A stretch of 64,000 nucleotides of DNA from Alphaproteobacteria bacterium (GTDB taxonomy: Bacteria > Pseudomonadota > Alphaproteobacteria > GCA-2731375). The position numbers and the translations under genes are program-made. Of the stretch, positions 18,511-48,985 are shown piece by piece; position 1 is the stretch's first letter, and each line of letters starts with the position of its first letter. Where the stretch lies: contig CBDDBZ010000033.1 in assembly GCA_965225945.1 (NCBI GenBank), positions 128,001 to 192,000 of the forward strand, read 5' to 3'. The notes under the pieces were generated by a model. The model worked only from the letters and a program-made list of their open reading frames with translations. It ran no database searches and had not been told where the DNA came from.

Positions 18511-18957
18511 TCAGCGCACGGCACGCAAGGCGCGACGCAGTTCGCGCTCCGATTCCGACGGTGTGCGGGCGATGGGCTCGTCGGTCACGCCCGCCGACAA
18601 CGGCCGGGCGGCGGCGGCGCCCGGCTCCGGGCGAGCGACGGTGGCGAGCCGTGTCGCCACGGAATCCGCCGACTCGATCATGCGACGAAGTTCGTCCACC
18701 AGCTCTCGTCCCCGGGCCAAGCGCCCTTCCAACTCCACGCCCAGCACGTCGCCGGCTCGGGCCAGCTCGCCTAGGCTGGCTTGCGCGTGTCCGGCCGAGC
18801 GCTCCAACTCCCTCGCCGATTCCGCCATTTCGCCGCGCGTGGCGCGAAGCGCGCCCAAGCGTTGATTGAGCACCAGGCAATAGCCGATCGTCACCATCAA
18901 CAAGACGACCAGGACCAGGTCGATCCAGAGCTGGGCGTTGCCCGAAAGCACGCTCAT
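18511..18957 (-). CDS. Membrane-anchored coiled-coil flagellar-cluster protein (DUF6468-like)
   Basis: TIGYCLVLNQRLGALR after a TM helix; SESERELRRAL tail; sits between fliM and motE. Confidence 0.7.
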   Translation of the reverse strand: MSVLSGNAQLWIDLVLVVLLMVTIGYCLVLNQRLGALRATRGEMAESARELERSAGHAQASLGELARAGDVLGVELEGRLARGRELVDELRRMIESADSVATRLATVARPEPGAAAARPLSAGVTDEPIARTPSESERELRRALRAVR

Positions 18958-20090: not shown

Positions 20091-20102
20091 CGCCCCCCGG
20101 AC

Positions 20103-20493
20103 TTACTGAACCAAAAATTCCTTGAACAGGATGTCATTCACCTTCGGCGCCCCGGTCGAGGCGTGAATGCGGGCGAGCAATTCCTCCTTGAGCAGCATCG
20201 GCCCGGCCGAGCCGCTCAAATCCTCGATCCGAAGCTCGCGCAGATAGATCTGGAAGGTGTCGATGATGCGCGGCAGCACGGCCTCGACCTTGCGCAGATC
20301 GTCGTCGTCTTCGAGCTCCAACGCGATGGCGATCTTGAGGTAGCTGTTCTGTCGCCCGCCACTGTTGAGGTTCACCAGAATGTGGGGCAGGTTGTAGAAT
20401 ACCAGCCCCCTCGCCGTCGCCGGCCCCGCGCCACCCTCGTCGGCCACCGTGGCCGGCGCCTCGCCATCGGCCGGCGGCGCAAGAAGAAAGAAG
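20103..20493 (-). pseudogene. fliL: fliL, 5' part disrupted by the cassette insertion and a deletion
   Basis: LVNL...YLKIAIALE...PRIIDTFQIYLRELR...FKEFLVQ; most of the N-terminal anchor is missing; possible orphan start MSDVDVNA at 21052. Confidence 0.85.
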
Positions 20494-21031
20494 CTTGCCT
20501 ATCCGGTTATCACCCACACCCACTATATGTAGTGTGCACCCATTTTCCTGAGTAAAGCTCGGTGCAGGTCGAAGCGGAGATATCTCCGGCGATGCCGAGC
20601 AGGGACTCGGACGGCATTGTAGCGCCTTTTAGGCGACACTTTAGCGTGGTGGAAATCCTAATCATTGAGTCGGATTTGGCAAAACGCCACGTTGCATAAA
20701 GGACCGTCACTTCATTGAAATTTATCTGAAATCGGAGGTGAACGACACCGATGGAATATTCCAGGAAATCAGAGCTTCATTGAATTGTAGGATTCGAGTG
20801 CCGGATTATTCACAAATAGCTCTGTGAACTGGTTTTCAAGTTCGCTCAATACGTCATATGAAGTAAACGGATTGAGGATCACGTTCTTGCGTGTCGCTTC
20901 GTCTTCGCTGCGACTCAAAACGCGCAGGAGACTAACAGGCGCGGACGGGTTCTTCGCAACGATTCGTGCCAGCGCGTCGCTTTCTTCGACTAGTGCCGTC
21001 AATCGCTCATCTCAGCAGCTTCCCGTCTGGC
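20494..21031 (-). mobile_element. Truncated copy of the 755-bp TIR cassette
   Basis: One 43-bp TIR at 20494; reverse-complement identity to 31590-32344 apart from a small internal deletion near 21010; other end lost. Confidence 0.92.
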
Positions 21032-21125
21032 GTTTACGTCGACATCACTCATCTGCTTGTCCGATCGAATCGTCGTTCGCCCGAGACCTTAGGTGACCTT
21101 GGTTAAGAACTTGTTGCCGAGGCGG

Positions 21126-21138
21126 CGGCAAAGCGCCG
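21126..21138 (+). promoter_or_regulatory. ftr-like (FlbD enhancer) element
   Basis: CGGC-AAAGC-GCCG dyad about 100 bp upstream of the sigma-54 promoter. Confidence 0.5.
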
Positions 21139-21229
21139 GGCGGCAACAACGACCGGGCAAGGACGATCCCCCCGGGCCTCGGGCGGCGGCCGACGGCACC
21201 GCTCGGCGCCATATTCCGCCTCTTGGCGC

Positions 21230-21246
21230 TTGGCACGTTCGATGCA
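21230..21246 (+). promoter_or_regulatory. Sigma-54 promoter of flgF operon
   Basis: TTGGCACGTTCGATGCA, GG-N10-GC spacing. Confidence 0.75.
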
Positions 21247-21293
21247 CCGCCCCTTCCGCCCCCTCCCCGCAGCATGCGGAAGGATGCCGGTCC

Positions 21294-22019
21294 ATGATGG
21301 AAAATGTCGGATACATCAGCCTCTCGCGCCAGATGGCGCTACGCCAAGAGATGGACGTCATCGCCAACAACATCGCCAACACCGGGACCACGGCCTTCAA
21401 GTCGCAGACGATCCTGTTCGCGGAATATCTGGTCGAGCAAAAGGGCAACGCCCCCGACATCTCCTTCGTGCAGGACCTCTCGGTCTTTCGCAACACCGCC
21501 TCGGGCCCACTGGTGAGGACCGGCGGCAAGCTCGACTTCGCCGTCGAAGGCGACGGCTATTTCGTCGTCGAGACGCCGGAAGGCCGCCGCTACACCCGGA
21601 ACGGGCGCTTCTTCCCGAACGGCGATGGCGAGCTCGCCACCCGCGAGGGCCACGCCGTGCTGGACGTCTCGTTCAATCGGATCGTCTTCGATTCGGCCGC
21701 GCCCGGCCTCGAAATCACCGCCGAGGGCGCAATCTCCAACAGCGAGGGCCCGATCGCCACCCTAGCCCTGGTCCGCTTCGCCAACGAGCAGAGACTCGCC
21801 GCCGAGGGCAACGGTCTCTATCGAGGCGACCAGCCGGTCGAAGCGGTCGAGCAGCCGCGCATCCTCCTGGGCGCGCTCGAAGGCTCGAACGTCGAGCCGA
21901 TCGTCGAGATGACCCGGATGATCAACGTCGCCCGCAGCTATCAGACGGCGCAGCGGATGATCAACGACAGCCACGATCTGCAGCGCCGGATGATCCGCAA
22001 CCTGGGCAGCGTGCAATGA
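21294..22019 (+). CDS. flgF: Flagellar basal-body rod protein FlgF
   Basis: ANNIANTGTTAFK, YTRNGRF, LEGSNVEPIVEM. Confidence 0.93.
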   Translation: MMENVGYISLSRQMALRQEMDVIANNIANTGTTAFKSQTILFAEYLVEQKGNAPDISFVQDLSVFRNTASGPLVRTGGKLDFAVEGDGYFVVETPEGRRYTRNGRFFPNGDGELATREGHAVLDVSFNRIVFDSAAPGLEITAEGAISNSEGPIATLALVRFANEQRLAAEGNGLYRGDQPVEAVEQPRILLGALEGSNVEPIVEMTRMINVARSYQTAQRMINDSHDLQRRMIRNLGSVQ

Positions 22020-22028
22020 CCGACCGCC

Positions 22029-23251
22029 CATGGTACACGACGGCATTTACGTAGGACGTTGAAAAGGTTGTAGGATTCCCGATTCACTCCACGATGAGTC
22101 AAGAGGGAAATCATGCGAGACAACCCGATCAACGCCCTGCGTGAGACGCTACGATGCGGCTTCGCCTTTCGCAAGAGCCGTCTGGAGAGCCTTTGCGTCT
22201 TGGTCTTCGGCGTGTTCGTCGCCCGGACGGTGAACCTCTCTCACTTGGCCTGCCACTTTCCGGGGCGCGCGCGATCCAGCTCCAACTATCGGCGCCTGCA
22301 ACGGTTTTTCGAGCAAGTCGATTTCGATTACGATCGCCTCGCCGAGTTCCTGGTCGCGATGATGGGGCTCCAGGCGGGGCCGTGGCGGCTGACCATGGAC
22401 CGGACCAACTGGCGGCTGGGTCGCCGCGACGTCAACATCTTGATGATCGGCATCGTCAACCGCGCCATCGCCATTCCCGTGTGCTGGCGGGTGCTCGACA
22501 AGGCGGGCAATTCCAATACCAAGGAGCGGATCGCGATCCTCGAACACGTCCTCCGGCTCTTCGGGGTCGACAAGATCGCCAGCCTCCTGGCCGACCGGGA
22601 ATTCATCGGCGACGCCTGGCTGGCATGGTTGCAGGAAAAGGCCATCCCCTTTCACATCCGCATCCGATCCAACATCAAGATCGCCAACACGCGTGGTCGC
22701 ATGGTCAAGGCGAGGGAGCTGTTTCGCGACCTCAAACCCGGGGAAAGCCGCATCCTCTCCAACGCCAGGCGCCTCTCGGAGGCCAGAAAACCCAAGGCCA
22801 GGCCCGTCTTCGTCGCCGCGCTCCATCTCAAGACCGGCGAACTGTTGATCGTCGTGACCAACGACGCGCCCGAGGAGGCCTTGGCCATCTACGCCCAGCA
22901 CTGGCAAATCGAGACCCTCTTCGCCGCCTTGAAAACCCGTGGCTTCAACCTCGAAGACACCCACATGACCGACCCGGAGCGCATCTCCAAGCTCACCGCC
23001 GTCCTTTCCATCACCTTCTGCTGGGCGCACAAAGTCGGCGATTGGCTCCACGAGGCCGAGCCGATCCGCCTCAAAACCCACAAAAGGATGGCAAAATCCA
23101 TCTTCCGATACGGTTTCGAGTGGATAAGGCGACAGCTCGTCAATCCTATCGACAGGCGTCAAGCCATTGAGCTGATTCGTTTCCTCGTCCCCGGAAAACC
23201 ACCAGTCCAGGTGCCCAGGCCAAAGCCAGCATGAACGAGTCGTGTACTGTG
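22029..23251 (+). mobile_element. IS4-family insertion sequence between flgF and flgG
   Basis: Imperfect TIRs CATGGTACACGAC / GTCGTGTACTGTG; 9-bp TSD CCGACCGCC at 22020-22028 and 23252-23260. Confidence 0.9.
22113..23234 (+). CDS. IS4-family DDE transposase
   Basis: MDRTNW, LADREF, YAQHWQIETLFAALK (YREK-like region). Confidence 0.92.
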   Translation: MRDNPINALRETLRCGFAFRKSRLESLCVLVFGVFVARTVNLSHLACHFPGRARSSSNYRRLQRFFEQVDFDYDRLAEFLVAMMGLQAGPWRLTMDRTNWRLGRRDVNILMIGIVNRAIAIPVCWRVLDKAGNSNTKERIAILEHVLRLFGVDKIASLLADREFIGDAWLAWLQEKAIPFHIRIRSNIKIANTRGRMVKARELFRDLKPGESRILSNARRLSEARKPKARPVFVAALHLKTGELLIVVTNDAPEEALAIYAQHWQIETLFAALKTRGFNLEDTHMTDPERISKLTAVLSITFCWAHKVGDWLHEAEPIRLKTHKRMAKSIFRYGFEWIRRQLVNPIDRRQAIELIRFLVPGKPPVQVPRPKPA

Positions 23252-23426
23252 CCGACCGCCATAAATGGCGACTCCCCGCGCCGCCCCGCTCCCCCGGCCC
23301 AACCACCCATGAATGGTACCCTCGGGGTGGTTGGGCCGGGGGAGCGGGGCGGTCAGGACTGCCGTCGGTTGGTATGAGCCCGGCCGGGTGGCGGCCACCA
23401 AACAGCAACCGAGCGGAGCCGAAGAC

Positions 23427-24212
23427 ATGAGAAGCCTCTCCATCGCGGCCACGGGCATGCTCGCGCAGCAGCTCAACGTCGAGGTGATCTCCAACAACAT
23501 CGCCAACATGAACACGACCGGCTTCAAGCGTCAGCGGGCCGAGTTCCAGGATCTGCTGTACCAGAACTTGCGGCGGATCGGGGCGCAATCCTCCGATGCC
23601 GGCAACCTGATCCCGGCCGGCGTGCAGATCGGCGCCGGCGTGATGACGGCGGCGGTCTATCGCCTGAGCGATCAGGGCGCGCTGCAGAACACCGAGAACA
23701 ACTTCGACTTGGCGATCCAGGGCCGGGGCTATTTCCAGATCGAGCTGCCGAGCGGCCAGACCGGCTATACCCGCGCAGGCTCCTTCCAGGTCAGCGCCGA
23801 CGGCCAGATTGTCACCAATAACGGCTTTATCGTGCAGCCGGGGATCACCATTCCGCAGGACGCGATCGACATCACCATCAACGCCAGCGGCGAGGTGCAG
23901 GTCTCGATCGACGGCCAGGTGGCGCCTCAGTTGGTCGGCCAGATCGAGCTCGTCACCTTCTTCAACGACGCCGGCCTGGAGGCCCAGGGCGACAACCTGT
24001 TCCTGGAGACCGCGGCCTCCGGCGCCGCCAACGCCGGCGTTCCCGTCAGCCCCGGCATCGGAACCCTGCTGCAAGGCTTCCTCGAGACGGCCAACGTCAA
24101 CCCCGTCGCCGAGATCACCAACCTCATCAAGGCCCAGCGCGCCTACGAGATGAACTCCAAGGTGATCACCACCTCGGACGAGATGATGCGCACCATGAGC
24201 ACGCTCAGATAG
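23427..24212 (+). CDS. flgG: Flagellar basal-body rod protein FlgG
   Basis: ISNNIANMNTTGFKRQRAEFQDLLYQ, AQRAYEMNSKVI. Confidence 0.97.
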   Translation: MRSLSIAATGMLAQQLNVEVISNNIANMNTTGFKRQRAEFQDLLYQNLRRIGAQSSDAGNLIPAGVQIGAGVMTAAVYRLSDQGALQNTENNFDLAIQGRGYFQIELPSGQTGYTRAGSFQVSADGQIVTNNGFIVQPGITIPQDAIDITINASGEVQVSIDGQVAPQLVGQIELVTFFNDAGLEAQGDNLFLETAASGAANAGVPVSPGIGTLLQGFLETANVNPVAEITNLIKAQRAYEMNSKVITTSDEMMRTMSTLR

Positions 24213-24220
24213 GAGTGTCC

Positions 24221-24946
24221 ATGATGATCCCCCGCCTCGCCCTCGCCTTCGGTCTCGCCCTCGCTCTCATCGCCCCGGCGCCCTCGTCCGCGCTCTCCAG
24301 CGGCGAAGCCGCCATATTCGAGGCCATCGAGAACGCGCTTCGCGACGCCGGCGCCGGCGAGCGGCTTCGGGTCGAGACCAATCGGCGCGACTTGATGCGC
24401 CGGCTGGTCCGGGCCGGGAACGGCAATCTCGCGGTCGAGATCGTCGACTTCGACCCGGCGAGCCGGCGCTTCGCCGCCGTGCTGCGCCTGGGCGCGGGTG
24501 AATCGCTCACGACCACTCGGCTCGCCGGGCGGGCTTACGAGATCGTCGATTTGCCGGTGCCGCGCCGCGCCGTCCCCCGGGGGGCTGAGTTGACCCGGGC
24601 GGACCTCGATTGGCGCCCGTTCCGCCTCGACCGCCTGGGCGCGGACGTCATCGAGGACGAGGCGGCGATCGTCGGCATGACCAGCCGGCGGCGGCTCGGC
24701 GCCGGCCGGCCGCTCCGCGCCGGCGACCTGACGCCGCCCGTGGTCGTGGCCAAGGGCAAAGTGGTGGCGATCGTCCTGGAGGTGCCGGGCATCAGCCTCG
24801 GCACCCTCGGCCGCGCGCTCGCCGATGGTGCCGAGGGTGCCTTCATTCCGGTGATGAACTTGCGCTCCAAGCGCACGATCGAGGCCCGCGTGACCTCGCC
24901 GGCGACGGTCCGGGTGGCGACCCGCGCCGGCCACTTCAAACCTTGA
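24221..24946 (+). CDS. flgA: P-ring formation chaperone FlgA
   Basis: Signal peptide, SAF domain, GRALADGAEG...VMNLRSKR; gene context. Confidence 0.85.
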   Translation: MMIPRLALAFGLALALIAPAPSSALSSGEAAIFEAIENALRDAGAGERLRVETNRRDLMRRLVRAGNGNLAVEIVDFDPASRRFAAVLRLGAGESLTTTRLAGRAYEIVDLPVPRRAVPRGAELTRADLDWRPFRLDRLGADVIEDEAAIVGMTSRRRLGAGRPLRAGDLTPPVVVAKGKVVAIVLEVPGISLGTLGRALADGAEGAFIPVMNLRSKRTIEARVTSPATVRVATRAGHFKP

Positions 24947-24972
24947 ACCCGAGACCCGAGGAGCAATCTCCG

Positions 24973-25731
24973 ATGCCGAAGAACCCGCAGCCGCGGACCA
25001 TCGCGCCGCTCGCCCTCATGCTCGCTCTCGCGCTCCCCGGCTGCAACGCCCTCGATCGGGTGAGCGAGATCGGCTCGCCTCCCGCCCTCAGCCATATCGA
25101 GAACCCGGTGCAACAGGCGAGCTACCGGCCGGTCTCGCTGCCGATGCCGAGGCCCGAGCCGGTGGTGCGCCGCGCGAACTCGCTTTGGCGCCCGGGCGCC
25201 AGGGCCTTCTTCAAGGATCAGCGCGCGGCCCGGATCGGCGATATCCTGACCGTCGACATCACCATCGACGACGAGGCCCAGATCGACAACGAGACCACGC
25301 GGACGCGGGCCGGCGGCGAGGACGCGGACGTCACCGCGATCCTCGGTTTCGAAGGCGTGCTCGCCAAGGTCCTGCCGGACGACTTCACGCCTGCGAACGT
25401 GGTCAGCCTCGGCAGCACCTCCAGCCACACCGGCGCCGGCTCGGTCAATCGCAGGGAGACCATCAATCTGACGGTCGCGGCGATCGTCTCCCAGGTGCTG
25501 CCGAACGGGAACCTGGTGATCACCGGCAGCCAGGAGGTCCGGGTCAACTACGAGATGCGGATATTGACCATCACCGGTGTCGTCAGGCCGGAGGACATCA
25601 GCGCCGCCAACACCATCAGCCACAACCAGATCGCCGAGGCCCGCATCGCCTATGGCGGGCGCGGCCAGATCACCGACATGCAGCAACCCCGCTACGGCCA
25701 GCAGCTCTTCGACATCATCTTCCCGCTTTGA
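24973..25731 (+). CDS. flgH: Flagellar L-ring protein FlgH
   Basis: Lipobox LPGC, NSLW, FFKDQRA, IAEARIAYGGRG. Confidence 0.95.
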   Translation: MPKNPQPRTIAPLALMLALALPGCNALDRVSEIGSPPALSHIENPVQQASYRPVSLPMPRPEPVVRRANSLWRPGARAFFKDQRAARIGDILTVDITIDDEAQIDNETTRTRAGGEDADVTAILGFEGVLAKVLPDDFTPANVVSLGSTSSHTGAGSVNRRETINLTVAAIVSQVLPNGNLVITGSQEVRVNYEMRILTITGVVRPEDISAANTISHNQIAEARIAYGGRGQITDMQQPRYGQQLFDIIFPL

Positions 25732-25899: not shown

Positions 25900-25935
25900 G
25901 GTTAATCATTCGAACCATCGTTCGAATGATTAACC
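25900..25935. promoter_or_regulatory. Perfect 16-bp inverted repeat (operator or terminator)
   Basis: GGTTAATCATTCGAAC-catc-GTTCGAATGATTAACC. Confidence 0.6.
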
Positions 25936-27760
25936 GCTAATGGAAACTGTCTATACCGAAAAATTTCTCCTGGTATTGTTCTCGAAATTTCAAGCGTCCA
26001 TGAACCGGCTTGGTTCGAATCCTGTTGCTTGATTTCTTTCCCGCCAGCATCCAATCTACCTTGGTGGCTATTTAGGCAAACTGAATACATGCGACCGAAA
26101 TTGCTCCTGGTGCTCTTGCTCGCCGGTCTTTTGTTCGCGGACATGCTCGCGCCGGAGCATGCCGCGCGTGCCGCCCCCGGCGACGAGCTTCTGGTCGTCG
26201 ACTGCCTTCTTCCCGGAAAGGTCCGACGTCTCGGCAGGCGTGTCACCTTCGTGACCGCGCGTCGCGCCGTGCGCACCACGGCGTCGGATTGCGAGATCCG
26301 TGGCGGAGAATATACCGCCAACGATCGAGCCAACTACGCCACCGCGCTCAGGGTTTGGCTTCCTCTCGCCAAGGGAGGCGATGCGGCGGCCCAGAACCAT
26401 GTCGGAGAGATCCACGAAAAGGGCTTGGGCGTCGAGCCTCAACACGAGATCGCCGCGGCCTGGTATTTGAAGGCGGCGAAACAGGGCTTCGCCCGTGCCC
26501 AGATCAACCTGGGCTCGCTCTACGAGCGTGGGCTGGGCGTGCCTGAGGACATGGTCAAGGCGGTGGAGTGGTATCGCCGCGCCTCCGGCCTGTCCGAGGT
26601 CGGCCTCGCCTATGTGCCCGCCGACGTCAAGGCGGAGTTGGAGGAGCTGCGTTCGGATCGCGATAGCTTGGCGGCGCAACGGGACGCGCTGGATCGCGAG
26701 CTCGATGCCGTTCGCTCCCAGCTCGAGCGCGCCAAGGAAGAGCTGCGGCGCCAGCATCGGCGAACCAACGCGACCTTGCGCGAGTTGGAGACGACCCGGG
26801 TCGAACTCGAAGCCCGGCGCAAGGTTGCCGAGCGCCAGGGCGACACGGCTAAGGTCGCGCGACTGCAAAAGGCGCTCGAGGCGAAGGCGGGGGAAGCGAA
26901 ACGCAAGAAGCGCGAGCTGGACCGATTGCGCGATCGCGTTTCAACGCTCAACGGCCAAGCGACGCGGCTCGAGGGGGCATTGGTGAAGGCGCGCTCGGAT
27001 CGCGAGCGTGATCGAACCCAACAACAAGATGCCAGTGTTTCCGCGAAGCAGGATCTTTCGGAGACGGCGGCGAGGCTACGCGAGGCCGAGGCGAGACTCG
27101 CGCGGGCGCGACGGGTCGAGGCGGGCGGCCGCGCGGAAGTGGAGCGGATACGAATCGCGCTCGCGACGGAGCAGAGCGCGGCCAAGCAGGATCGCGCCCG
27201 AATCTCGGGGCTCGAGCGCGATCTCTCGGCGAAGGAAGACACGCTGGCCGAACGCGACCAGAGGCTGGCCGAACTCGACGGCGAAATCTCCTCGCTACAC
27301 GACGAGCTCAAAGCGCTGAGGACCGAGGCGACGACAAAGCGGGAAGTGGCGGCGACAAAGCGGAAAGTGGCGGCGGCGGGCACGAGGGGACCGATCATCG
27401 AGATCATCGAACCGCCCCTGGCGCGAACGCGGGCGGCGGACCCCGCCAGCGTGAATATCAAGGCGACGTGGGAGCGCCTGGTCATCGGCAGGGTTCAGGC
27501 ACCGGGCGGCCTCATCGCCTTCATGATCAACGACGAGGAACAAACCACCGGCAAGGACGGCATGTTCCGGGTAAAGGTGCCCGTCGACTATCCGGAAACC
27601 CCGGTCCATATCGTCGCCATCGACGCCGCCGGCCTTCGTTCGTCCCTCTCCTTCGTCATGAAGCCGAATGCCGATCCGAACCCCGAGCCGAAGCGAGAGG
27701 CGCCGAGCAAGAAATTAGCCGGAGTTGTATCGCACCCGGTTCCTTGGACACAAGTTTGTC

Positions 27761-28672
27761 TCATGCGGCGGGCCTGAGTGACATCGCGGTGTGCCACGCC
27801 TGACGAGCTTGAGCGGGGCTCAGGTAGCCGTTCTTCTCCACGATCCACTGGGCATTGTACTGTTCGACGAACCCGCGGACGGCGTTCCGCAGCTCCGCGA
27901 TGTTGCGGTAGATGCGGCCATGGATGATCTGTTCCTTGAGCGTGCGATTGAACCTCTCGGCGACGCCGTTGGTCTGGGGCTGTTCGACGAAGGCGTAGGA
28001 CGGCTGGATGCCCCAGAACTTGATCTGGTTGGTGAAGTGGTCCGACAGATACTGGGAGCCGTGATCCATCCGCAAGGCCAGCCCCCGCGCCGCACCGGCG
28101 GAGGTCGAGGCATACAGCCTCGCAAGCCCCATGGAGATCGGCTGAAGGGCGGCGAAGCGGTCGCCTCGCTTGCACACATGCCAGCCGACGCACTCGGCGT
28201 TCCAATGCTCGATGGCGGTGAATATCCAGCCCCAGCCGTCGTCCACCGTGAACACCCGAACGCCGTCCGTGCCCCACATGAGGTTGGGGGCATGGGTGAT
28301 GATCTCACCGACATGGGGATTTCCGCCACGGCGGCGGCAGCGATGGGGCGAGAGCAGGTTGTTCTCGCGCATCACCCGGAGCACCCGCTTGCGGGAAACA
28401 CGGATGCCACGACAGACCCGAAGCCGAGCCCAGACCTTGCGGTGTCCCTCGCCCTCCCAGGGGGATGCCTCCAGGTCGGCCTCGATGGCCACCAGCAGAG
28501 CCTCGTCCGAGATCGAGGGCTTCGGTCCCCGGCGCTTTGCTGGTGGGCGCTCAGCGGTGGCCTGCTGCCGGGATTTCATGGCGTAGAACGAGGAACGGGC
28601 AAAACCCCAGGCCGCACAGACCCGCTGGAGGCCGTAGGCCAAACCCGTGCCGGGAGAGGTGGCGGCACTCAT
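27761..28672 (-). CDS. IS3-family transposase OrfB (integrase core)
   Basis: WGTDG, MDHGSQY, TNGVAERFNRTLKE. Confidence 0.92.
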   Translation of the reverse strand: MSAATSPGTGLAYGLQRVCAAWGFARSSFYAMKSRQQATAERPPAKRRGPKPSISDEALLVAIEADLEASPWEGEGHRKVWARLRVCRGIRVSRKRVLRVMRENNLLSPHRCRRRGGNPHVGEIITHAPNLMWGTDGVRVFTVDDGWGWIFTAIEHWNAECVGWHVCKRGDRFAALQPISMGLARLYASTSAGAARGLALRMDHGSQYLSDHFTNQIKFWGIQPSYAFVEQPQTNGVAERFNRTLKEQIIHGRIYRNIAELRNAVRGFVEQYNAQWIVEKNGYLSPAQARQAWHTAMSLRPAA

Positions 28673-29079
28673 CGCCGCGACCTCCGCCGCCCCAAAGGGC
28701 CGGACGTCTCCGTCTTGGCCTCCAGCAGTTCCACCTGCATGATCAACTCCCCGATCCGCTTCATGGCGATGTCCAGTTCCGCCTTTACCGGATCGCCCTT
28801 GCGTTCCTTGAGCGAGGCATCGATCCCGGCGATCGCCTTCTCACGCCACTGCTCGAGCCGGAAAATCTCCACGCCCAACTGCCGCGACAAAAGTTCCACC
28901 GGCTCGCCACGCAAAAGCCGCAGGGCAACCTCACGCTTGCGCGTCACCGTCCACCGCTGGCCAAGTCCCAGCGGGCCTGCCGGCGAAACCTGGCCCGGGG
29001 AAAACGTGGACGAGCCAAGCTCGCCCTCGTTTACCACAGGCCCATCAACAGCAACTTTGTTCTCAAAATTGTCGGTCAT
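28669..29079 (-). CDS. IS3-family OrfA (HTH)
   Basis: RKREVALRLLRGE...LEQWRE; ATGA overlap with orfB. Confidence 0.85.
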   Translation of the reverse strand: MTDNFENKVAVDGPVVNEGELGSSTFSPGQVSPAGPLGLGQRWTVTRKREVALRLLRGEPVELLSRQLGVEIFRLEQWREKAIAGIDASLKERKGDPVKAELDIAMKRIGELIMQVELLEAKTETSGPLGRRRSRR

Positions 29080-31589
29080 GTTCCGGTCCTCCTTGGACAC
29101 TTCGATTAAGCCAATTCTGTGTCCAAGGAAATCGGGTCCGACTCAAAATTAGCCGGAGTCTCCTTCGGCACCTTCCATGCCCTGGTCATCGGCAACAACG
29201 AATATGCCCACCTGCCCGACCTGAAAACCGCGCGCGGCGACGCGCAAGCGGTGGCGAAATTGCTGGAGACGCGCTACGGCTTCAAGACAACGGTCCTCCT
29301 GAACGCGGATCGCTATGCGATATTGTCGACGTTGAACAAGCTTCGCGCCGAACTGAGCGAAGACGACAATCTGCTGATCTATTATGCCGGTCATGGTGAA
29401 CTCGACCGCGCCAACGATCGCGGTAATTGGCTGCCGGTCGACGCGGAACCCGACAGTACCGCCAATTGGATCTCGAACATTCAGATCACCGACGTGTTGA
29501 ATTCCATGCTGATCCGCCAAATCATGGTGGTGGCGGATTCCTGCTATTCCGGCACGCTCACCCGGGCGGCGCTGGCCCAGTTGGACGGGGGGGTCTCGGA
29601 CAAGGGTCGGGTGAAATGGATCAAGGTCATGGCGACGAAGCGGGCACGCGTCGTCCTCTCGTCGGGCGGGGTTCAGCCCGTGCTCGACAGTGGCGGAGGA
29701 AAACACTCGGTCTTCGCCAAGGCCTTCATCGAGGTTCTTCGGAGCAACGATTCGGTGTTGGAAGGCCAGCTCGTATACCGGCGTGTCGCGCAGCGGCTCG
29801 CGGATTCATCGGCGGCCCGCATCGGTCAGATTCCGAGCTATGCCCCCATCAAATACGCCGGGCACGAAGCCGGCGACTTCTTTTTCGTCCCCCGCGCCCA
29901 CGACTAGCGCGGCGCCCCCGGCCTTTGGCGGCCGCCGCCCCCGATTGAGCCGGCGGGTCGAAGCAGTGTGGTAAAAGTCCCCACGGTCTCCGAATATTTG
30001 CGCGAAGAGGCGTAGCGCGTTGAATTCCCCTAGTATTTCTGGGGCAACTTTGGTATCAAGCCTATCGTCGGAGTCGAAGCTATTGGCTTGATCGTCCGAC
30101 TTCTCGAATTCGTTTTGGAGGGGATTATGTCCGAAGGTATCGCGCGTGACGGGGTTTCGGGCGCTCTCGCCGCCGATTGCAAGCCTGTGAACCCGATCGC
30201 CTCCATGGCGCCACGCTTTGAATTGAAAACCGCCCGAATTTCGAGATCCGCCTTAATCGCATCGTTGGTATTGTCATTTGTCGCCATTACGGCCGACCCG
30301 GCGGTCGCGCAGAGTCTCGCCAATCTGCCGGGGCAGACAGAGTTGCAAATTCGCACCGGTACCGCCATCACCACGGTTTGCGTAGCCCTGATTGGCTTGC
30401 GGACCGACCGCACCGGCCCCTCCGATACCGAAGACCTCTTCGCGCGTTGTGGAGACATGGTTCAGACCGCCAACGATATCCTCGGTGCCGGCGCAACGAC
30501 TTTCAGTCTCGGCTTGACCGCGGCGCAAACAAACGAGGCCCTGGTGGAAATCGCGCACGACGAGGCCGCGGCCTTCGGCGCCAACAGCACGGAAATCCGA
30601 AGCTCCCAGGCCAAGTCGATCGCCGGGCGATTGTCGGCCATACGGCGCGGCGCCACGGGCTTCAGCCTCGCCGGTCTTCACTTCGACGTGCCGGGCGAGG
30701 CGAGGCGCCGCGTCTCGCTCGCGGATATGATGGGGAGCGTCGATTCCGCCGGCGAAGCGGCCGGAAGCTCCGGGGAAAGCTGGTTCGCGGGGAGGCTCGG
30801 CGCCTTTCTCAGTGGTTCCCTCGGCACCGGCGACGCGGATGGATCGAGCGAGGAGGCCGGCTATGACGTCACACTCTTCTCCATCAGCGCCGGTCTCGAC
30901 TATCGTATCACGGACAGTTTCGTCGCCGGGGCCGCCATATGGTTACGGCAATAGCGATTCGAGCTTCGACGGCGGCGGCAACATGGATACCGACGCTTTC
31001 AATATCACTCTCTACGGAACTTATGGCATTACCGATGCGCTCTACGTCGAAGGTGCCTTCGGCTATACGCGAAGTGAATACGATATATCCAGGCGCATCG
31101 TCTATGGGGCGGCCATCAGGCCGGTCAACAGGACGGCCAGGGGAGATCCGTCGGGAGATCAGTTCCTGATCAGTTTCGGCGCCGGTTACGACTTCGCCGT
31201 CGGCGGATGGACGATCACTCCCAGGGCACGTATCGACTATCTCAATTCGAGCATCGACGGCTTTACGGAAAGCGGTGCGCGTGGATTGAACCTCCGCTAC
31301 CGCGGCCAGGACTACGAGTCGCTCGCCTCCGACGTCGGCGCGGACATTGCTTACGCGATTTCGACGGACTTCGGCGTCGTCGTTCCACAGGCGAGCTTGG
31401 CATGGATTCATGAATACATGGATGATTCCCAATCCCTCACGGTACAGTACGCCGCGGATCCGAATAACTTCACGTTTTCGGTGTTGACGGACAATCCGGA
31501 CCGAGATTATTTCGGGCTCGGTCTATCTCTTCTCGCGGTATTCCCCGGCGGCATCAACGGGTTCGTCAACTATTCGACCATCCTCGGAC

Positions 31590-32344
31590 CTTGCCTATCC
31601 GGTTATCACCCACACCCACTATATGTAGTGTGTCTCCTTGGACTGCAGGCAAGGGCCGGCGCAGGCGCATTGAGGAGGCGATCCGGCTAATTCTTGATTG
31701 TTCTGAAAACCGAACCGGAGTTTAATTCACGTCACGTACTTAACATCGGGGGACGGAACGGTGGCGACCAAGGGAAAAACGAAGAAACCCACGGCCAGAC
31801 GGGAAGCTGCTGATGAAACGACATCGTCTGAGCGATTGACGGCACTAGTCGAAGAAAGCGACGCGCTGGCACGAATCGTTGCGAAGAACCCGTCCGCGCC
31901 TGTTAGTCTCCTGCGCGTTTTGAGTCGCAGCGAAGACGAAGCGACACCCAAGAACGTGATCCTCAATCCGTTTACTTCATATGACGTATTGAGCGAACTT
32001 GAAAACCAGTTCACAGAGCTATTTGTGAATAATCCGGCACTCGAATCCTACAATTCAATGAAGCTCTGATTTCCTGGAATATTCCATCGGTGTCGTTCAC
32101 CTCCGATTTCAGATAAATTTCAATGAAGTGACGGTCCTTTATGCAACGTGGCGTTTTGCCAAATCCGACTCAATGATTAGGATTTCCACCACGCTAAAGT
32201 GTCGCCTAAAAGGCGCTACAATGCCGTCCGAGTCCCTGCTCGGCATCGCCGGAGATATCTCCGCTTCGACCTGCACCGAGCTTTACTCAGGAAAATGGGT
32301 GCACACTACATATAGTGGGTGTGGGTGATAACCGGATAGGCAAG
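31590..32344 (+). mobile_element. 755-bp non-autonomous passenger cassette (IS1595/ISSod11-like ends)
   Basis: Perfect 43-bp TIRs CTTGCCTATCCGGTTATCACCCACACCCACTATATGTAGTGTG; 8-bp TSD CCTCGGAC. Confidence 0.95.
31761..32069 (+). CDS. Cassette passenger: 102-aa LRV (leucine-rich repeat variant)-like protein
   Basis: Repeated VAKNPSAP / VILNPFTS / FVNNPAL units; GGGGAC upstream of the GTG start. Confidence 0.7.
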   Translation: MATKGKTKKPTARREAADETTSSERLTALVEESDALARIVAKNPSAPVSLLRVLSRSEDEATPKNVILNPFTSYDVLSELENQFTELFVNNPALESYNSMKL

Positions 32345-32576
32345 CCTCGGACATCGCTCGGCGAGTATTCATGTGGGAACCGTGGGATTACGCTTCGAGT
32401 TCTAGCGCCTTTCAAGCTTGCGCGACCCCCCCCCTCCCCCGGCCCGGCGCCGTGGCGCGGCGAGCCGCCTCGCGCGATCGCGGTTCGGGCCACCCGGCGT
32501 GCCCGAGGGCGCGGCAGCCGTATTTACCTAACCGAAAGGGGGCATGTAGAGTCGAGACCGTTTGGGGGGAGCACGG

Positions 32577-35500
32577 ATGGCGCAGGGAGGTGGCGCTCGC
32601 CGGCCGACGAGGATCGTCGCGGCGGGCTTCAAGGTCACTTCGCGCCGGATGGCGGCGCTCGCGGTCCCGATCGTGCTCACCCTGGCGTGGGCCGCGCCGG
32701 CACAGGAAGTCACCAACGAGATGATCGTCACCAGTGGCGATGCGGTACCGGGGCGAACCGGGGAGACGTTCGGTGGCTTCTCGAGCCCGATCGTGCTGGA
32801 CGACGGCGCTGTCGTCTTCATCGCCAATTGGTCCAACGCGGAATTTTCGAACATCGGCGGCCTGTTCACCATCCCCTCGGGCGGCGCGCTGACGGAGCTG
32901 GCGATACTCGAGCAAAATTTTCCGCTGATAACGAATCTGGACGGCTCTCCGAGCACGTTCAGCTTTCCCATCCCGCGGGCGGTCTTCGCCGTTCGACCGG
33001 ATAATGGAAGCACAATCTTCGACGTGCTCGTCCGCACCGATCGCAGCGACGCCGATTCCCGGGATATACACATCCTCGAGCAGTCCCAAGACGGAACCCG
33101 GCGCATCCTCGACAGCGCTCTCGCGTTCACTGACTTGGTCATCAACGACACGGGCACCTCGCTCTATTTTCGGACCCTTCGCGATCTGGATACCCGAGTC
33201 CTGTTTGGCGAGTTAGTGCTGGGGGGTAGCGTGATCGACCTCGGTGGCGCGATGGGCCTCGGCGGCGCGACGTTCGCCGGCATACGCCCGCTCGCGGTGA
33301 GCACGTCGGGCGACGGCTTCTTCGCCGCCGACCTGTCCGGCGCCGGGGTCGACACGACGAACGACGAATCCTTTTGGCGCACGGTGGCTGGCGTGCCGAC
33401 GCTGATCGTGCGCGAGGGCGAGCCGGCGCCGGGCTTGACGGGCTTCACGCTGACGGCGGTCGACGACATCGACGGCTCGCCCTTCGCCACGCGGCACGAC
33501 GAGGTGCCGGGCATCCGGGCGGACGGCACTTTCGTGTTTTCGGGCACGGCGACGGCGGCCGACGGCAGCGTGGTGCAGGGCATCTGGCGCGGCACGGGCG
33601 CGGGCGATCGCGCGCTGGTCTTCGCGACCTCTTCGGATCCGAGCCGGATCCCGAACGGCGTGGCGACGGGGGCGGAGATCGACGACATCAAGGCGGTGGT
33701 GCTGTCGACCAGCGGGGAGATCTTCTTCACCGCCGGCGCGGCGAGCCTGATCGACGCGCCGGGCCTCTTCGGCCTCGCCGAAAACGGCACCTTGCGGACG
33801 CTCTCCGGCGACAACGTGGCGGCGCTCGCGGGCGCGGGCTTCGTCTTCTCGGACATCACCGACCTCTCGATCAGCGCCGAAGGACGGCTCGCCTTCCTCG
33901 CCGAGCTCACGAACAGCTCGGCGACCTTTGTTCCAGCGCCGAGGGTGACCAGCCTCTGGGCGGTCGACGCGAATGGAAATCTCAGGCTCGTGGTGACAAC
34001 CGGCGAGACGGTCGACGGCATCGAGTTGATCACCTTGATCCGCGATTGGGAAAGCCTGAACTTCTTGGGCGGCGGCGGTGCCACCGATTTCAACGCCGCC
34101 GGGCAGATCGTCTATGTGGCCGGGTTCCGGGGGGGCGGCTTCGACCTCAGCGGCGTGCTCATTCTGGCGGACCTCGGCGATCTTCAGCCGATCACCGACT
34201 TCGTCTGGACCGGCGACTGCGGGAGCAGGAACTGGCATGACCCCTGCGCCGCCGCCAATTGGGTCGATGCGACCGACGAAACCAACATCGCCACGACGCC
34301 GCCCGGCACCGACGCGGCGCAGACCGCCACCATAGTGAACGCGAGGGTCGTCATAGAGGATGAACCGGTCACGCTGCGCTCGATCACCGCGACCGGGTCT
34401 CTCACCGTCCTCACCGCGCTCGCGCTGGAGGCCGATTCGCGGATCGAATCACTCACCTTGGACGGCGATCTAAGGATGAACAGAAGGACCGAAATTTTCG
34501 GACAGAGCACGTGGACCAGTGGCACTATATCCGGAGATTTCGATCCGGATCTCGACCAACAAAGTCGTATACTCGTCAACACTGGCGTGCTCAGGATCGC
34601 CAGAGGTGGCGATCATATACTTCGCACTATGTTGCTCAACGCAGGAACGGTGATTCATGAGGAGAGCGCAACGATTCGCATACAATATGGCGGAAGAATC
34701 GCGAATTATGCAACCTATAGACTCTCCGGAAATTTACGGGACAACGCTCTCCTCATTGGAAACGCTTTTGATAATAGCGGCCACCTTATATTGGAAAGGA
34801 CGACCATAAATCAATCCGGTGCATTCAACACCTTCGGCATCAGATTATTTAACATCATATCTGACGTAACGGTATCTGACGTAACGGTAGCCGTAGGTGC
34901 AAATGGACGATTTTCGCTACGAATACAATCACGATCACCCTGGGTGGCGATCGTTTAAATTCCGAACATTTCATAGTTCTCGATGGCGCGAAGCTGCGCT
35001 TGGGTGCGGACTAATGTCATAATCAACGAAATCAGCGGCAGAGCAGCACTGTTTCTACATGGTAGTGGGAGGCTGATTAATCTTGTTGACGCCATGTCAG
35101 CGTCCAGGCAGAGAGATTTGACTGTAGACGGTGTCTTGCATATTTTATCCAATGCAAGCTTCTCAACGGCGGGAGATCTCAGAGTTATTGGTAGTGGTAA
35201 TTTGGAGGTAAGCGGTGGAAGCCATCTTCGAGTGAACGGAGATCTTCTCAGTTCAGCCCCACGAGGGATTGCTAGGGCTATCAGTATATTGACTGGATCT
35301 ACGATTACCGTGACTGGGGATTTAGTTATTGGGGCGGGAAACAGTGCGTCCCTCACTAACCTTGATCCCGATACGAACGCGCCGATTCCCGGTCCTGTTC
35401 CGACCTCCCGGGTATTGGGAAACGTCTTCAATTCGGGGGCCCTCACTCTCCAGAGGCACCGCCTGGACGTTTCGACGGGCCGAGTGGAGAATTCAGGGAG

Positions 35501-37196
35501 GCTCATCGTCGACGGCACCTTGGATGCGCGCACGGTCATCAATAATGCCATTCTGGGCCCGGGCACGTCTGCCGGCATCGCGACCCTGGGCGGCGACTAC
35601 GAGCAAACGTCCGAAGGCAACCTCGAGATCGAGCTCGGCGGCACCACCGCCGGCACCGAGCACGACCAGCTCATCGTCGGCGGCACGGCGAGTTTCGAGG
35701 CCGGCACCACGGTCACCGTGGTGCTGATCGATCCCGCCGACGACGCGGGCGCCAACGTCTTCAGTCCCGCCAACGGCGATACCTTCGACATCGTGCTCGC
35801 CGACGCGATCACCGTGCCCGACCCGGACGATCTCTCCGCCCTGCTGGATTTCTCCGGCTTGCCGATGGACGTCTCCTTCGATGCCGCGCTCTTTACCATC
35901 GACGGCCAGGACATCTTCCGCTTGCAGGCGCTCGTCGCCGCGCTGTTAACGGCGACCCCCGGCCTTTCCGCCGCCGAGACGGCGGTGGGCGCCTCGCTGG
36001 AGGCGGCCGCCGCGGCGGGCGGCTCGGCCGACGTGGTGGCGTTGGCCGACGAGCTGGCGGCGCTGGAGTCCGACGCGGCCAGGGCCGAGGCGCTGGCGGA
36101 GGCCGGCCCCAATGCCGTCACCGCGCTCTACGATGCCGGCCGGCTCGGCGCCGCGCGGGCGGCCGGCCATCTCGGGCGCCATCTCGATGCCGCGATCTGG
36201 AACCCGAGCGCCGCGCGGCCGACCGCCTCGGCGGCCGCTTCCACGCCGACGCCCGCCTTCCAGCCGACCCTGGTGCGCGAGCAACGCGATCTCCTGGCCC
36301 TCGCCCGGGGCCTGACCTCGGGCTCGGCGAGCGGCGAGGCGACGCTGTTCTCCGAGGGCGCGATCGAGGCCTTCATCACCGCGACGGGCGAATTCGGCGA
36401 CGTCGCCGCCTCGGCCAACCAGTCCGGCTACGACTTCAGCGGCGGCGCGCTGACCACCGGCGTCGAGGTCCGCATCAACGATGCGATCAGCCTGGGCCTG
36501 GCCGGGACCTACGGCGCCCTCGATGCCGACATCGACGGCGGGCGCGGCGCCACGGATAGCGACTTCTACGGCGTCTCGGGCTATGCGCAGGCGCGCATCG
36601 CGCGGGACTATTTCCTCGATGCCACGATCAGCCACACCTGGTCGGACCACGACACCACGCGGCGCTTCACCGCGGGCGGCGCCGCGGTGGTGGCCAGGGG
36701 CAATACCGACGGCACCGCGTGGTCGGCGGTGGTGCGGGGTGCCGCGCGCTTCCCCGTGGGCGCGGGCTTCGTCGGCCCGGTCGCGAGGCTCGAATACGCC
36801 GACGTCAGCATCGACGGCTACACCGAGACGGGCGCCGGCGGGCTCTCGCTCACCGTCGGCAACGAGAGCGCGCAATGGTTCGCCGGCAGCCTCGGGGTCC
36901 GGGGCGCGGTGCCGATCGAGACACGCCTTGGCCGGGTGACGCCGAGCGGCGGGATCGCCCTGGTGCACGCCTTCGAGAACGAGGCGCCCTCGCTCACCGC
37001 CAGCTTCACCGGCGCGCCCGGGACCCCCTTCACGGTCCCGACCGACGACACCGACGACACTTATCTCGAGCTCGACCTGGGCCTCAGCCTCGACTTCGGC
37101 GCGGACGCCCGCCTCTCGCTCGGCTACCGGGGCACGCTCGCCAACGACGACGTCGAACGCCACGCGCTCACCGCCAGCCTGCGCCTGCGCTTTTGA
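32577..37196 (+). pseudogene. Large autotransporter adhesin-like protein, frameshifted
   Basis: Signal peptide, repeats of the NxxGxxAF type, C-terminal barrel ending ASLRLRF; frame breaks near 34920 and 35010. Confidence 0.8.
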
Positions 37197-37205
37197 GAAC
37201 CATCG

Positions 37206-37721
37206 ATGCGCCGTGTCCTCGCGATAACAACGGTCTTTACGCTTGCGCTCGCCGGCTCGGCCGGCCTGGCGCAATCGCCCAAGGTCGGCGAACGCTTCGG
37301 CGACTGGGTCTTCACCTGCAAGGCGCTATCCTCGAAAGAAACCGTGTGCGCCCTGACGCAGACGGTGACCGTCAAGGCCCAGCAGGGACGCGGTCGGATA
37401 TTGACGCTGCTTTTGCGCCGGCTCGAAGACGAGAAGACGAAGCAGCGCAAGATCATCCTCGTCGCATTGCTGCCGCTCGGCATCTACCTGCCCCCCGGCG
37501 TGGCGGCCCGGATCGACCAGGGAGCGCAGTTCCCCCTACAGCTCAGGACCTGCACCCAGACCGGGTGCGAGGCGGCAACGGAGCTGGCCGACAAGACGCT
37601 GGAAGCGTTCAAGGCGGGAAACCAGCTTTTCATCGGCTTCAAAACCGCCGCGAAAGGCAAGGTCTTCACGATCCCCGCCTCGCTCAAGGGTGTCACCAAG
37701 GGTCTCGCCGCGCTGCCGTGA
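37206..37721 (+). CDS. Invasion associated locus B (IalB) family protein
   Basis: Signal peptide, FGDWVFTC, LPLGIYLPPG, CTQTGC, SLKGVTKGL. Confidence 0.85.
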   Translation: MRRVLAITTVFTLALAGSAGLAQSPKVGERFGDWVFTCKALSSKETVCALTQTVTVKAQQGRGRILTLLLRRLEDEKTKQRKIILVALLPLGIYLPPGVAARIDQGAQFPLQLRTCTQTGCEAATELADKTLEAFKAGNQLFIGFKTAAKGKVFTIPASLKGVTKGLAALP

Positions 37722-43688: not shown

Positions 43689-45100
43689 TGGAGTGCACCC
43701 CCTGGATGACACAAAGAATCAGGGACAGTTGGTTGTCATTTCCAGCGCCCGCCGGGCGGCGGTCTCTGGGGTGATGATGGTGTTTTCGAACTCCTCTGGT
43801 GATAGGTATCGAAGCGCCGAGTGGAGGCGCGTCTTGTTGTAGACCTCTTTGATGAAGCTGGCGATGTCGCTCTCGGCGTGGGCGATGTCCCGGTAGGGCC
43901 TGCCCTCAACCTCCTCTGTCTTCAAGGTCTTCATGAAGCTCTCCGCCATGGCGTTGTCGTAAGGGCAGGCGATCCGGCTCATCGAGGGCAGGATGCCATG
44001 GGCCTCCAGGCGGGCGATGTAGTCGCCGGAGGCATATTGAACGCCGCGATCGGAGTGATGCACCAGGCCATCGGGGATCACCTCGCGCTCCAGAAGCGCC
44101 ATATCCAAGGCCGCCAGCGTCAGGCTCGCCTTCAGATGATCGGCCAAGGCCCAGCCGATGACGCGCCGGCTGTGCGCATCGAGCACGACCGCCAGATAGG
44201 CGAAGCCCTCCAGCAAGCGAACATAGGTGATGTCGGCGACCCAGAGCTGGTTGGGGGCCGTCGTCTCCAACCGGCGCGCCAGGTTGGGATAGATCCGATA
44301 GCTATGCTTCGAGTCCGTGGTCGCCGGCGCGAAGCTCCGTCGACGCAGGCATAGCAGATTGTCCTCGCGCATCAAACGCAGCACCCGCTTGTGGTTGACG
44401 CTCCAGCCCTCGCGCCGCAACAGCGCCCCGATCCGCCGATAGCCGTAATGTTTGTTGTCGATCGCCAGGCGCTGGAGCTTATCGCGTAACGCCGTTTCCT
44501 CAGCCCTCGGCCTCGATGCCCGCCAATGGCGGTGAAAGCTCGATCGGCTCAGCCCCATCAGATCGCACATCCGTCCCATGCTCAATCCGCCTTGCCGCCG
44601 CGACCCGGCCCGGACGAGGCCGAAGACGCGCTCCCGCCAGAGCGACCGTTCGCTCCGCGGCAGCTCTCCGAGAGCCGCAAGGCTTGCCTGAAAAAATCCG
44701 CTTCCAAGGCCTGCTGGCCGACCTTCCGCTCCAGCTCGGCGATCCGCCGGCGCGCCAGGCTCAGGGCATCCGGCCGGACCGCCGGAACAGCACTTTCGGA
44801 CCCGGCGCGGAGGCCTTGCGCCCGCCTCCCTCCGACGACCGTGCTTCCCTTTCTGGGCCGGCCGGGCGGGCGCAAGGCCTCCGCGCCGCCCGCTCGGTAG
44901 GCATCGCGCCACTCGTAGAGCAGCTTGCGCCGGACCTCGAGCTCGCGTGACAGCGCCGAGACGTTCTCGCCCGACTCCATCCGCGCCAGCGCCGACAGCT
45001 TGAAGTCTCGGCTGAAACGCCGTGCACCTTTTCGTTCCATCAGTTCCTCCTCGGAAGAACTGTCACTCATTTCTCTGTGTCAGGACAGGGGTGCGGTCCA
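43689..45100 (-). mobile_element. IS3-family element (orfA about 44582-45040, orfB 43719-44585)
   Basis: TIRs TGGAGTGCACCCC / GGGGTGCGGTCCA; WVADITY, HSDRGVQY, DNAMAESF; T6 slippery run at 44691-44696; no TSD seen. Confidence 0.92.
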
Positions 45101-47699: not shown

Positions 47700-47877
47700 A
47701 ATCAACAACGTCGTCGGCCGGCTCGAGCTGCTTGGCGGGTGGCGCGGTTTCGTACGGCACGCCCTGAGCGTCGAGGAACGCCCGCGCGGTGCCGGCACTG
47801 ATGGCGAAGTCCACGTTTTGCGGGATATAGCCGGGCGCCCGGGTGATCCGGATGGCGTTCAGCTTGCCCACGCCCAC
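47700..47877 (-). pseudogene. C-terminal remnant of a trypsin-like serine protease
   Basis: KLNAIRI...IPQNVDFAI...RAFLDAQGVPY. Confidence 0.6.
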
Positions 47878-48824: not shown

Positions 48825-48985
48825 TCCCCCGATCCGTGGACGCAAGCTCCCCTCGCGCCGCGATGGCGCCGTCCCCAGTGTACCACGTAGCGAAATGGTC
48901 GGAGAAAGCCGTGGGCCGGGCATTTTCGAGAGTGAGGGGGATTCGGGGGCCATCTCCCCGTATCCCAGCGCGAGGCCGGCCGAAC

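Follow-up and report, generated by a model that had tools for sequence, protein, structure and literature searches.

A transposase-less cassette with IS1595-type ends and an LRV-module reading frame in an alphaproteobacterial genome

The cassette, its copies and the genes they interrupt

The 64,000-nucleotide stretch of alphaproteobacterial DNA analyzed here (positions 128,001 to 192,000 of contig CBDDBZ010000033.1, GenBank assembly GCA_965225945.1), hereafter called the window, contains three copies of a cassette that has the ends of an insertion sequence (IS), encodes no transposase and carries a 102-amino-acid (aa) open reading frame (ORF) related to LRV-repeat proteins. Two copies are complete: copy A (31590-32344, forward strand) and copy B (61816-62570, forward strand) are both 755 bp long and differ by a single mismatch at 31948, where copy A has a C and the counterpart in copy B is a G. 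The terminal inverted repeats are perfect over exactly 43 bp (31590-31632 and 32302-32344 in copy A), and a separate 8-bp target duplication brackets each complete copy, CCTCGGAC at 31582-31589 and 32345-32352 for copy A and GGACAGTG at 61808-61815 and 62571-62578 for copy B. The outermost 21 bases indeed occur five times in the window when up to three mismatches are allowed, as against no occurrence in 100 shuffles. The third copy, copy C (20494-21031), is inverted and truncated. It corresponds to element positions 240-755, over which it is identical to copy B; beyond position 240, a net deletion of 13 nt is followed by positions 205-224, where the copy ends. Copy C has neither the left end nor the start of the ORF, its reading frame is broken, and it is immobile. 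A short minus-strand ORF that begins near 21044 fuses seven codons of the flank in frame to codons 12-18 of the cassette.

Copy A opens with an IS-derived left arm (31590-31655, forward strand), made up of the end and the former 5' leader of a transposase gene. It is followed by about 574 bp of captured cargo (31656-32229, forward strand), which has a G+C content of 50% and no similarity to the IS. The 102-aa ORF lies within this cargo (31761-32069, forward strand), starts with GTG and corresponds to the N-terminal module of LRV proteins; in copy B, it occupies positions 61987-62295. Further to the right, the last 32 codons of a transposase gene, together with their stop codon, are found at 32230-32328 (forward strand) and run into the right inverted repeat. 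As a whole, the cassette has a G+C content of 51%, as against 66% for the window. The initial annotation of this DNA had described two full copies separated by one substitution and a truncated inverted third, perfect 43-bp inverted repeats, a separate 8-bp duplication for each full copy, an AT-richer composition than that of the host and the absence of a transposase; all of these descriptions, including every coordinate, were confirmed. Inside the inverted end at 31617-31630, and at the same positions of the other ends, we also observed a hairpin-like near-palindrome (CACTA-TATG-TAGTG). Analogous palindromes of the CTAG/CTAG type stand at the same place in ISAcr1-like ends at other loci, and the near-palindrome may be a putative transposase-binding or regulatory feature of the IS lineage.

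Both complete copies interrupt genes. Copy A splits an autotransporter beta-domain gene on the forward strand (30812-31589, with its tail at 32353-32405; PF03797, 172.9 bits). Past the right duplication, this gene continues in frame for 16 more codons, to ...GLRFEF, and then stops; a C-terminal ending of this kind is typical of outer-membrane barrels. Copy B splits a TPR-repeat gene on the minus strand (62571-63110, with its tail at 61736-61807; TPR families), which continues in frame past the left duplication for 23 more codons before a stop. Removal of the element and of one copy of the duplication puts both split genes back in frame. The autotransporter and TPR genes have been inactivated by the cassette. 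The same is probably true of a fliL-like gene (20103-20493, minus strand; PF03748 FliL, 70.1 bits), whose 5' end adjoins copy C.

Near-identical copies, distinct duplications and host genes that are in frame on both sides indicate that transposition took place in the recent history of this genome, in agreement with the earlier view of the cassette as recently mobile. A high copy number, as put forward in the initial annotation, would go beyond the three copies observed in these 64 kb. The near-identity of the copies could also be expected from segmental duplication or from an assembly artefact, an explanation to which we give practically no credence. The similarity indeed extends precisely as far as the inverted ends and no further; the 8-bp duplication and the flanking genes, which resume in frame, differ from one copy to the next; and the same ends are present at other sites in other assemblies, so that this explanation is already contradicted by the data.

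IS1595-family ancestry of the ends and relatives in other genomes

The origin of the ends was indicated by a blastn search of the PLSDB plasmids, where element positions 688-755 were 83.8% identical to the ends of copies of "IS1595-like element ISAcr1" in seven records. Element positions 630-753 were also about 72% identical to unannotated stretches of three sphingomonad plasmids; the whole cassette was not found among the PLSDB plasmids by this search. On the Acidiphilium plasmid pACRY02, both ends of ISAcr1 open with the 15 outer bases of the cassette, and ISAcr1 is flanked there by the 8-bp repeat ATATATTG. The transposase gene of ISAcr1 encodes 338 aa and extends into the right end of the IS. 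When this transposase was compared with the window by tblastn, only residues 307-338 found a match, with 66% identity (E 1e-8), and this match was present once in each of the three cassette copies. Since the similarity is limited to the last 32 residues, the right arm of the cassette represents what is left of a transposase gene at its 3' end, and no transposase is encoded by the element itself.

A scan of species-representative genomes, based on a degenerate pattern drawn from the core that is conserved in the ends, returned at least 72 loci. Among the 72 loci listed, 71 are labeled Alphaproteobacteria and one is labeled just "Proteobacteria"; a full-length ISAcr1-like transposase gene is present in 33 of the 72. 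All 72 share the conserved core of the ends with the cassette. The 8-bp duplication, found around both complete copies, was also observed around ISAcr1 and around a short relative described below. The IS1595 family is characterized by an 8-bp duplication and by a transposase that combines a zinc ribbon with a DDE domain (PMC8101967). As regards the transposase, the cassette retains only its last 32 codons, instead of a complete gene with PF12760 and PF12762, and for this reason it is filed here as an IS1595 derivative and not as an IS. The initial annotation had proposed IS1595-family ends with 8-bp duplications, and both the ISAcr1 match and the transposase remnant speak in favor of this proposal. 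Within the family, the end of the cassette, CTTGCCTATC, fits the motif nnnGcnTATC of the ISSod11 group, and on the basis of this motif the cassette may belong to this subgroup, as put forward in the initial annotation. ISSod11-group IS1595 elements are mentioned for a sphingomonad (PMC5737581), and relatives are also present on sphingomonad plasmids; this link is an indirect one.

Pieces nearly identical to the cassette were found in two metagenome-assembled genomes (MAGs). At locus L042, cassette positions 1-247 are present with 99.2% identity over 248 nt, and at L012, positions 616-755 are present with 99.3% identity over 140 nt; both pieces lie at the end of a MAG contig, and both sites are unlike those of the window. 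The MAG of L042 also contains, at L065, an IS left end that runs into the start of a transposase, a co-occurrence that speaks indirectly for mobilization in trans. The nearest relatives of the cassette arms among the loci listed are the arms of a 357-bp miniature inverted-repeat transposable element (MITE) in a Rhodospirillales MAG (L056, 1999-2355), with 54 of 64 positions identical on the left and 83.8% identity over 105 nt on the right. This MITE is flanked by the 8-bp duplication GTTAGAAC, and its left arm shares with that of the cassette a block of the former 5' leader, GCAGGCAAGGG, at an equal distance from the end. It retains the first 58 and the last 30 or so codons of the transposase gene, stop codon included, and ends of its type are also present in the MAG of L042. 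A smaller element of the same IS lineage, about 105 bp long and hardly more than two ends, was noticed at L019 (39-147). The same IS lineage has thus given rise to smaller, non-coding derivatives, represented by the L056 MITE and the L019 element.

The 58 N-terminal transposase codons of the L056 MITE served as the query in the search for a full-length relative. This led to P0134, a protein of 340 aa with PF12760 and PF12762, which scores 204 bits on the NCBIfam model "IS1595 family transposase" (cut-off 75). The C-terminus of P0134 is identical to the cassette remnant at 22 of 31 residues (71%), and is thereby closer to it than that of ISAcr1. Another predicted protein, P0135, reads through a left end, giving PVRLSPTPTIC where frame 2 of the cassette end is translated as PIRLSPTPTIC (10 of 11 residues). 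A full-length transposase lineage of the cognate type therefore exists.

Origin and probable maintenance of the 102-aa reading frame

The ORF of copy A scores 33.1 bits on LRV_2 (PF25591), for which the gathering cut-off is 27, and a 92-aa stretch of the copy B ORF, taken from an internal start (62017-62292), scores 34.4 bits on the same family. On Pfam LRV (PF01816), scores were 15.8 and 19.7 bits, below the gathering cut-off of 21.6. The G+C content at third codon positions (GC3) is 0.55 in the ORF, as against 0.75-0.93 in the host ORFs kept by a filter of GC3 ≥ 0.75. The single difference between copies A and B is non-synonymous, residue 63 being a proline in copy A and an arginine in copy B, in copy C and in the family consensus.

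A profile built from 99 cassette ORFs was searched against 1.84 billion representative sequences (E ≤ 0.001) and gave 5176 matches, most of the best 150 being multi-repeat proteins of 412-2244 aa. The best domain spans at least 75 profile positions in 126 of the 139 long matches, and for at least 80 of these 126 its start falls among the first 15 residues. Residues 1-91 of the ORF align without gaps with residues 1-91 of P0155, a protein of 900 aa, at 53% identity, as against about 30-40% with the internal repeats of the same protein. The same gapless alignment of 1-91 to 1-91 also holds with LRV proteins of 600-1400 aa, and two cyanobacterial plasmid proteins, of 239 and 666 aa (Synechocystis and Calothrix), match at their N-terminus with 39-42% identity. 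Such a match, anchored at Met1, identifies the ORF as the N-terminal module of long LRV proteins, start codon included, cut near residue 97. Judged by these alignments, the ORF is in origin a 5' fragment of a long LRV gene and not a free-standing gene. The initial annotation had presented the product as an LRV-repeat mini-protein in its own right, a notion that gives way to this homology from Met1 to about residue 97.

Apart from those with a WGR domain, the long LRV proteins consist purely of LRV/HEAT-like repeats. A WGR domain stands directly before the module in 6 of the 20 that were scanned (P0141, P0143, P0145, P0164, P0189, and P0266), where the module begins from about residue 100; one of these proteins gave a weak PADLOC match to a WGR model. 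Twelve "longer" relatives of the ORF were considered as candidates for the parent gene and rejected, as they proved to be read-throughs, chimeras with other genes or error-ridden copies. The 160 bp past the stop codon were likewise rejected as a continuation of the LRV gene or of the transposase gene, the weak extensions obtained there having crossed stop codons; in a BLASTP comparison of the downstream cargo with P0134, only the last 31 residues matched.

A fragment of this kind may or may not still serve as a protein. At the 90% identity level, 232 clusters of relatives of the ORF were found (E ≤ 0.001), and most of the diverged ones come from short contigs, some hundreds to some thousands of bases long, as is usual for repeats. 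Among the best 120 of these 232 relatives, with identities of 73-98%, 85 have exactly 102 aa and 98 have 99-103 aa. The maintenance of the frame at about 102 aa in diverged copies suggests selection. The initial annotation had also envisaged a mere fragment of a longer LRV gene that decays freely across copies: the fragment part of this view stands, while free decay is at odds with the lengths of the relatives listed. The consensus of the cassette ORFs agrees with that of the N-terminal module of the long proteins at 61 of 102 positions, and the variability of the individual columns is correlated between the two groups (Spearman 0.47, with none of 5000 permutations as high), a correlation that is partly circular, since the cassette-ORF profile served both to detect the long proteins and to align them. 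There is also some indication, from two read-through proteins, that more than one arm variant accompanies the ORF: in P0124, an end-like translation follows within a few codons of the point where the ORF normally stops, and in P0125 the left end is spelled differently.

These observations have to be set against the view that the ORF is a functionless hitch-hiker, a captured 5' fragment that looks conserved through recent spread and through the preference of databases for intact ORFs. Non-autonomous elements indeed need their ends alone, and the ORF consists of the first 97 or so codons of a long LRV gene, cut short. The sole substitution within the genome changes an amino acid, one copy is already frameshifted, and the region upstream of the ORF showed no promoter-like site. 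On the other hand, 85 of the 120 relatives listed have exactly 102 codons, at protein identities down to 73%, and the positions that vary among cassette copies tend to be those that vary in full-length LRV proteins, with the circularity mentioned above; the apparent association with different arm variants, moreover, would not be expected of neutral filler. We therefore consider the hitch-hiker view as possible, though on the doubtful side. From the sequence comparisons, a protein under selection appears somewhat more probable than an unselected one.

What such a protein might do was approached by structure prediction, as proposed in the initial annotation. The AlphaFold2 model, obtained with 99 sequences, is all helical, with residues 1-19 disordered and a mean predicted local distance difference test score (pLDDT) of 66.8; the disordered N-terminal tail is basic. 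A Foldseek search of the PDB with this model gave no informative match (best E 2.8), and a profile search of PDB sequences gave a chance-level match (E 0.6). The ORF matched no NCBIfam family and no defense family in PADLOC, and it had no tblastn match in phage records. A feature-based atlas search pointed to LRV and LRV_2 clusters, some of them commonest in phages, which are to be taken as leads only. At the nucleic acid level, Rfam had no match in the element and its flanks, folding of the 3' cargo (32066-32235) gave nothing unusual (z -1.03), and the scan for promoters and terminators gave nothing above shuffle expectation. The ORF would most plausibly encode a protein-binding module. That it binds the transposase or a host partner, as the initial annotation had put forward, is pure conjecture.

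One form of this conjecture is that the 102-aa protein acts as an accessory factor of transposition, binding the IS1595 transposase or the ends and favoring the cassette over its autonomous parent. It is the sole conserved ORF of a successful non-autonomous element, its basic disordered tail is followed by a helical repeat, and some long relatives have a WGR domain directly before the module. WGR domains are linked to nucleic-acid binding in other proteins. We nevertheless regard this idea as very unlikely: the ORF has no homology to any part of a transposase, and the module is common in long LRV proteins, both chromosomal and plasmid-borne, that have no visible tie to transposases. The predicted complex of the ORF with a P0134-type transposase scored 0.00 in both runs, which were made without controls and give no verdict either way.

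More broadly, the cassette might owe its spread to its passenger, a stand-alone LRV module kept under purifying selection in hundreds of lineages. The module might act there, for instance, on the partner of the host's long LRV proteins, for which it would serve as a decoy or a competitor, or it might assist the parent transposase in such a way that the cassette is preferred. We consider this rather unlikely. If it is true, the cassette would parasitize another parasite by means of an effector of its own, and would offer a handle on the function of the LRV_2 module.

Nature of the element, its surroundings and comparison with known systems

Taken together, the data are, in our judgment, very probably explained by a non-autonomous mobile insertion cassette (MIC) that derives from an ISAcr1-like IS of the IS1595 family, is moved in trans and carries as cargo a fragment of an LRV gene, which is probably under selection. 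Of its parent, the cassette has retained both putative transposase-binding ends, the left arm being preserved over about 66 bp and the right arm, with the last 32 codons of the transposase gene, over about 115 bp. In place of the rest of that gene, it has about 574 bp of foreign DNA with a lower G+C content. It cannot move on its own: an IS1595-type DDE transposase, encoded by a full-length relative at another location in the cell, would bind the shared ends and insert the cassette, creating the 8-bp duplication. Mobilization in trans is inferred from the absence of the transposase from the cassette and from the general behavior of MIC-type elements, which are described as activated by a cognate transposase in trans (PMC3129680). 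Very recent moves in the present genome knocked out the autotransporter and TPR genes, and the copy next to fliL has since been crippled by a deletion. The cargo itself is the promoter-proximal piece of a long LRV gene, with its leader, its start codon and some 97 codons from its beginning. It now encodes a protein of 102 aa, predicted to be all-helical and to have a basic disordered tail, in a frame that is kept in diverged copies.

Several points weigh against this explanation. In the 64-kb window, tblastn with the ISAcr1 transposase revealed no full-length IS1595 transposase, and P0134, the closest full-length transposase found, is just 71% identical to the remnant, which makes it a relative and not the parent. 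The case for selection was made from proteins alone, on the best 120 of 232 relatives, and decayed copies are under-represented among predicted proteins. Individual copies do decay, as seen from the non-synonymous nature of the only substitution within the genome and from the destruction of the ORF in copy C. No empty allele of either insertion site was seen, the loci retrieved covering neither site. Finally, the mean pLDDT of the structure model is moderate.

The window provides some further observations on the setting of these copies. The flagellar cluster that contains the fliL-like gene (18954-25731, with fliM, fliL, two flgF/G-like rod genes, and flgH) looks eroded, with copy C on the 5' end of fliL and a DDE_Tnp_1 transposase gene separating the rod genes. 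Transposase-like ORFs crowd the window, at 22098-23234, 58507-59130 and 63509-64000 on the forward strand and at 27761-28840, 43719-45062, 56629-57963 and 59435-60947 on the minus strand. Besides the DDE_Tnp_1 gene between the rod genes, they comprise two of the rve type (IS3-like), one of the Mutator type with a fragment, an HTH-rich ORF at the end of the window, and an apparently frameshifted, two-ORF transposase-like gene with a Mu-transposase C-terminal domain. This abundance suggests a genome in IS expansion. Several other ORFs (25930-27777, 29110-29907, 34977-37721, 47859-48953, and 62571-63110) encode domains that are more usual in eukaryotes or host-associated bacteria, namely Sel1 repeats, a caspase-like Peptidase_C14 domain, a Vps62-like domain, TPR repeats, a second autotransporter and an IalB-like protein. 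At 34501-35500, from the end of a DUF7453 gene to where the second autotransporter gene begins, the G+C content drops to 48-52%. Between the IS-like genes and the TPR gene, a short distance upstream of copy B, there is a 199-aa ORF (61046-61645, forward strand) without a match in Pfam.

In the present case, the 5' end of a gene for a repeat protein was taken up by an IS1595-type element, with which it spread through many alphaproteobacterial lineages. Literature searches, which did not cover ISfinder, revealed no description of an LRV-carrying cassette, and none of the papers found on IS1595 mobile insertion cassettes had an LRV cargo. The LRV-carrying cassette adds a new case to a type of element that is already known. 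For annotation, it should be noted that the cassette and its MITE relatives break assemblies, their ends being found at contig ends in several MAGs, and that the ORF will be listed by gene callers, in hundreds of instances, as "hypothetical protein". Provided that it is really under selection, the ORF offers a compact, 102-aa entry point to the function of the widespread N-terminal module of LRV_2 proteins; if it is not, the cassette is an ordinary non-autonomous IS derivative.

Among known elements, ISAcr1, on which no paper was found in our literature search, shares with the cassette the 15 outer bases, a right end that is 83.8% identical over 68 bp, the 8-bp duplication and the C-terminal stretch of 32 residues, 66% identical, that the right arm of the cassette still encodes. 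It differs by its length of about 1.08 kb and by its 338-aa transposase with zinc ribbon and DDE domain, in place of which the cassette has an unrelated ORF; furthermore, the two ends of ISAcr1 differ from each other, whereas those of the cassette are perfect mutual copies over 43 bp. The L056 MITE resembles the cassette by its arms, the nearest to it, by its 8-bp duplication and by its descent from the same IS sub-lineage through internal loss, but it keeps parts of the transposase gene and has no foreign DNA, whereas the cassette carries foreign cargo. With 755 bp and a conserved 102-aa ORF, the cassette is not the short, non-coding element that the term MITE denotes. The long LRV/LRV_2 proteins (PF01816, PF25591; e.g., P0155 and P0224) match the cassette ORF over their first 91-97 residues or so, from Met1; they are 239-2244 aa long, with up to 21 repeat stretches and in some cases a WGR domain, whereas the cassette ORF ends after one module.

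The closest parallel in kind is provided by the MICs, which were first described as MIC231 with IS231 in Bacillus cereus (PMC3281130; PMC3129680). Like MIC231, the cassette combines IS ends with the absence of a transposase and the presence of a passenger ORF, and both would be activated in trans; the initial description of a transposase-less cassette of the MIC kind is well borne out by these three features of its anatomy. MIC231 belongs to the IS4 family, and the present cassette to IS1595; its passenger, moreover, is a truncated module of a repeat protein and not a complete, recognizable gene.

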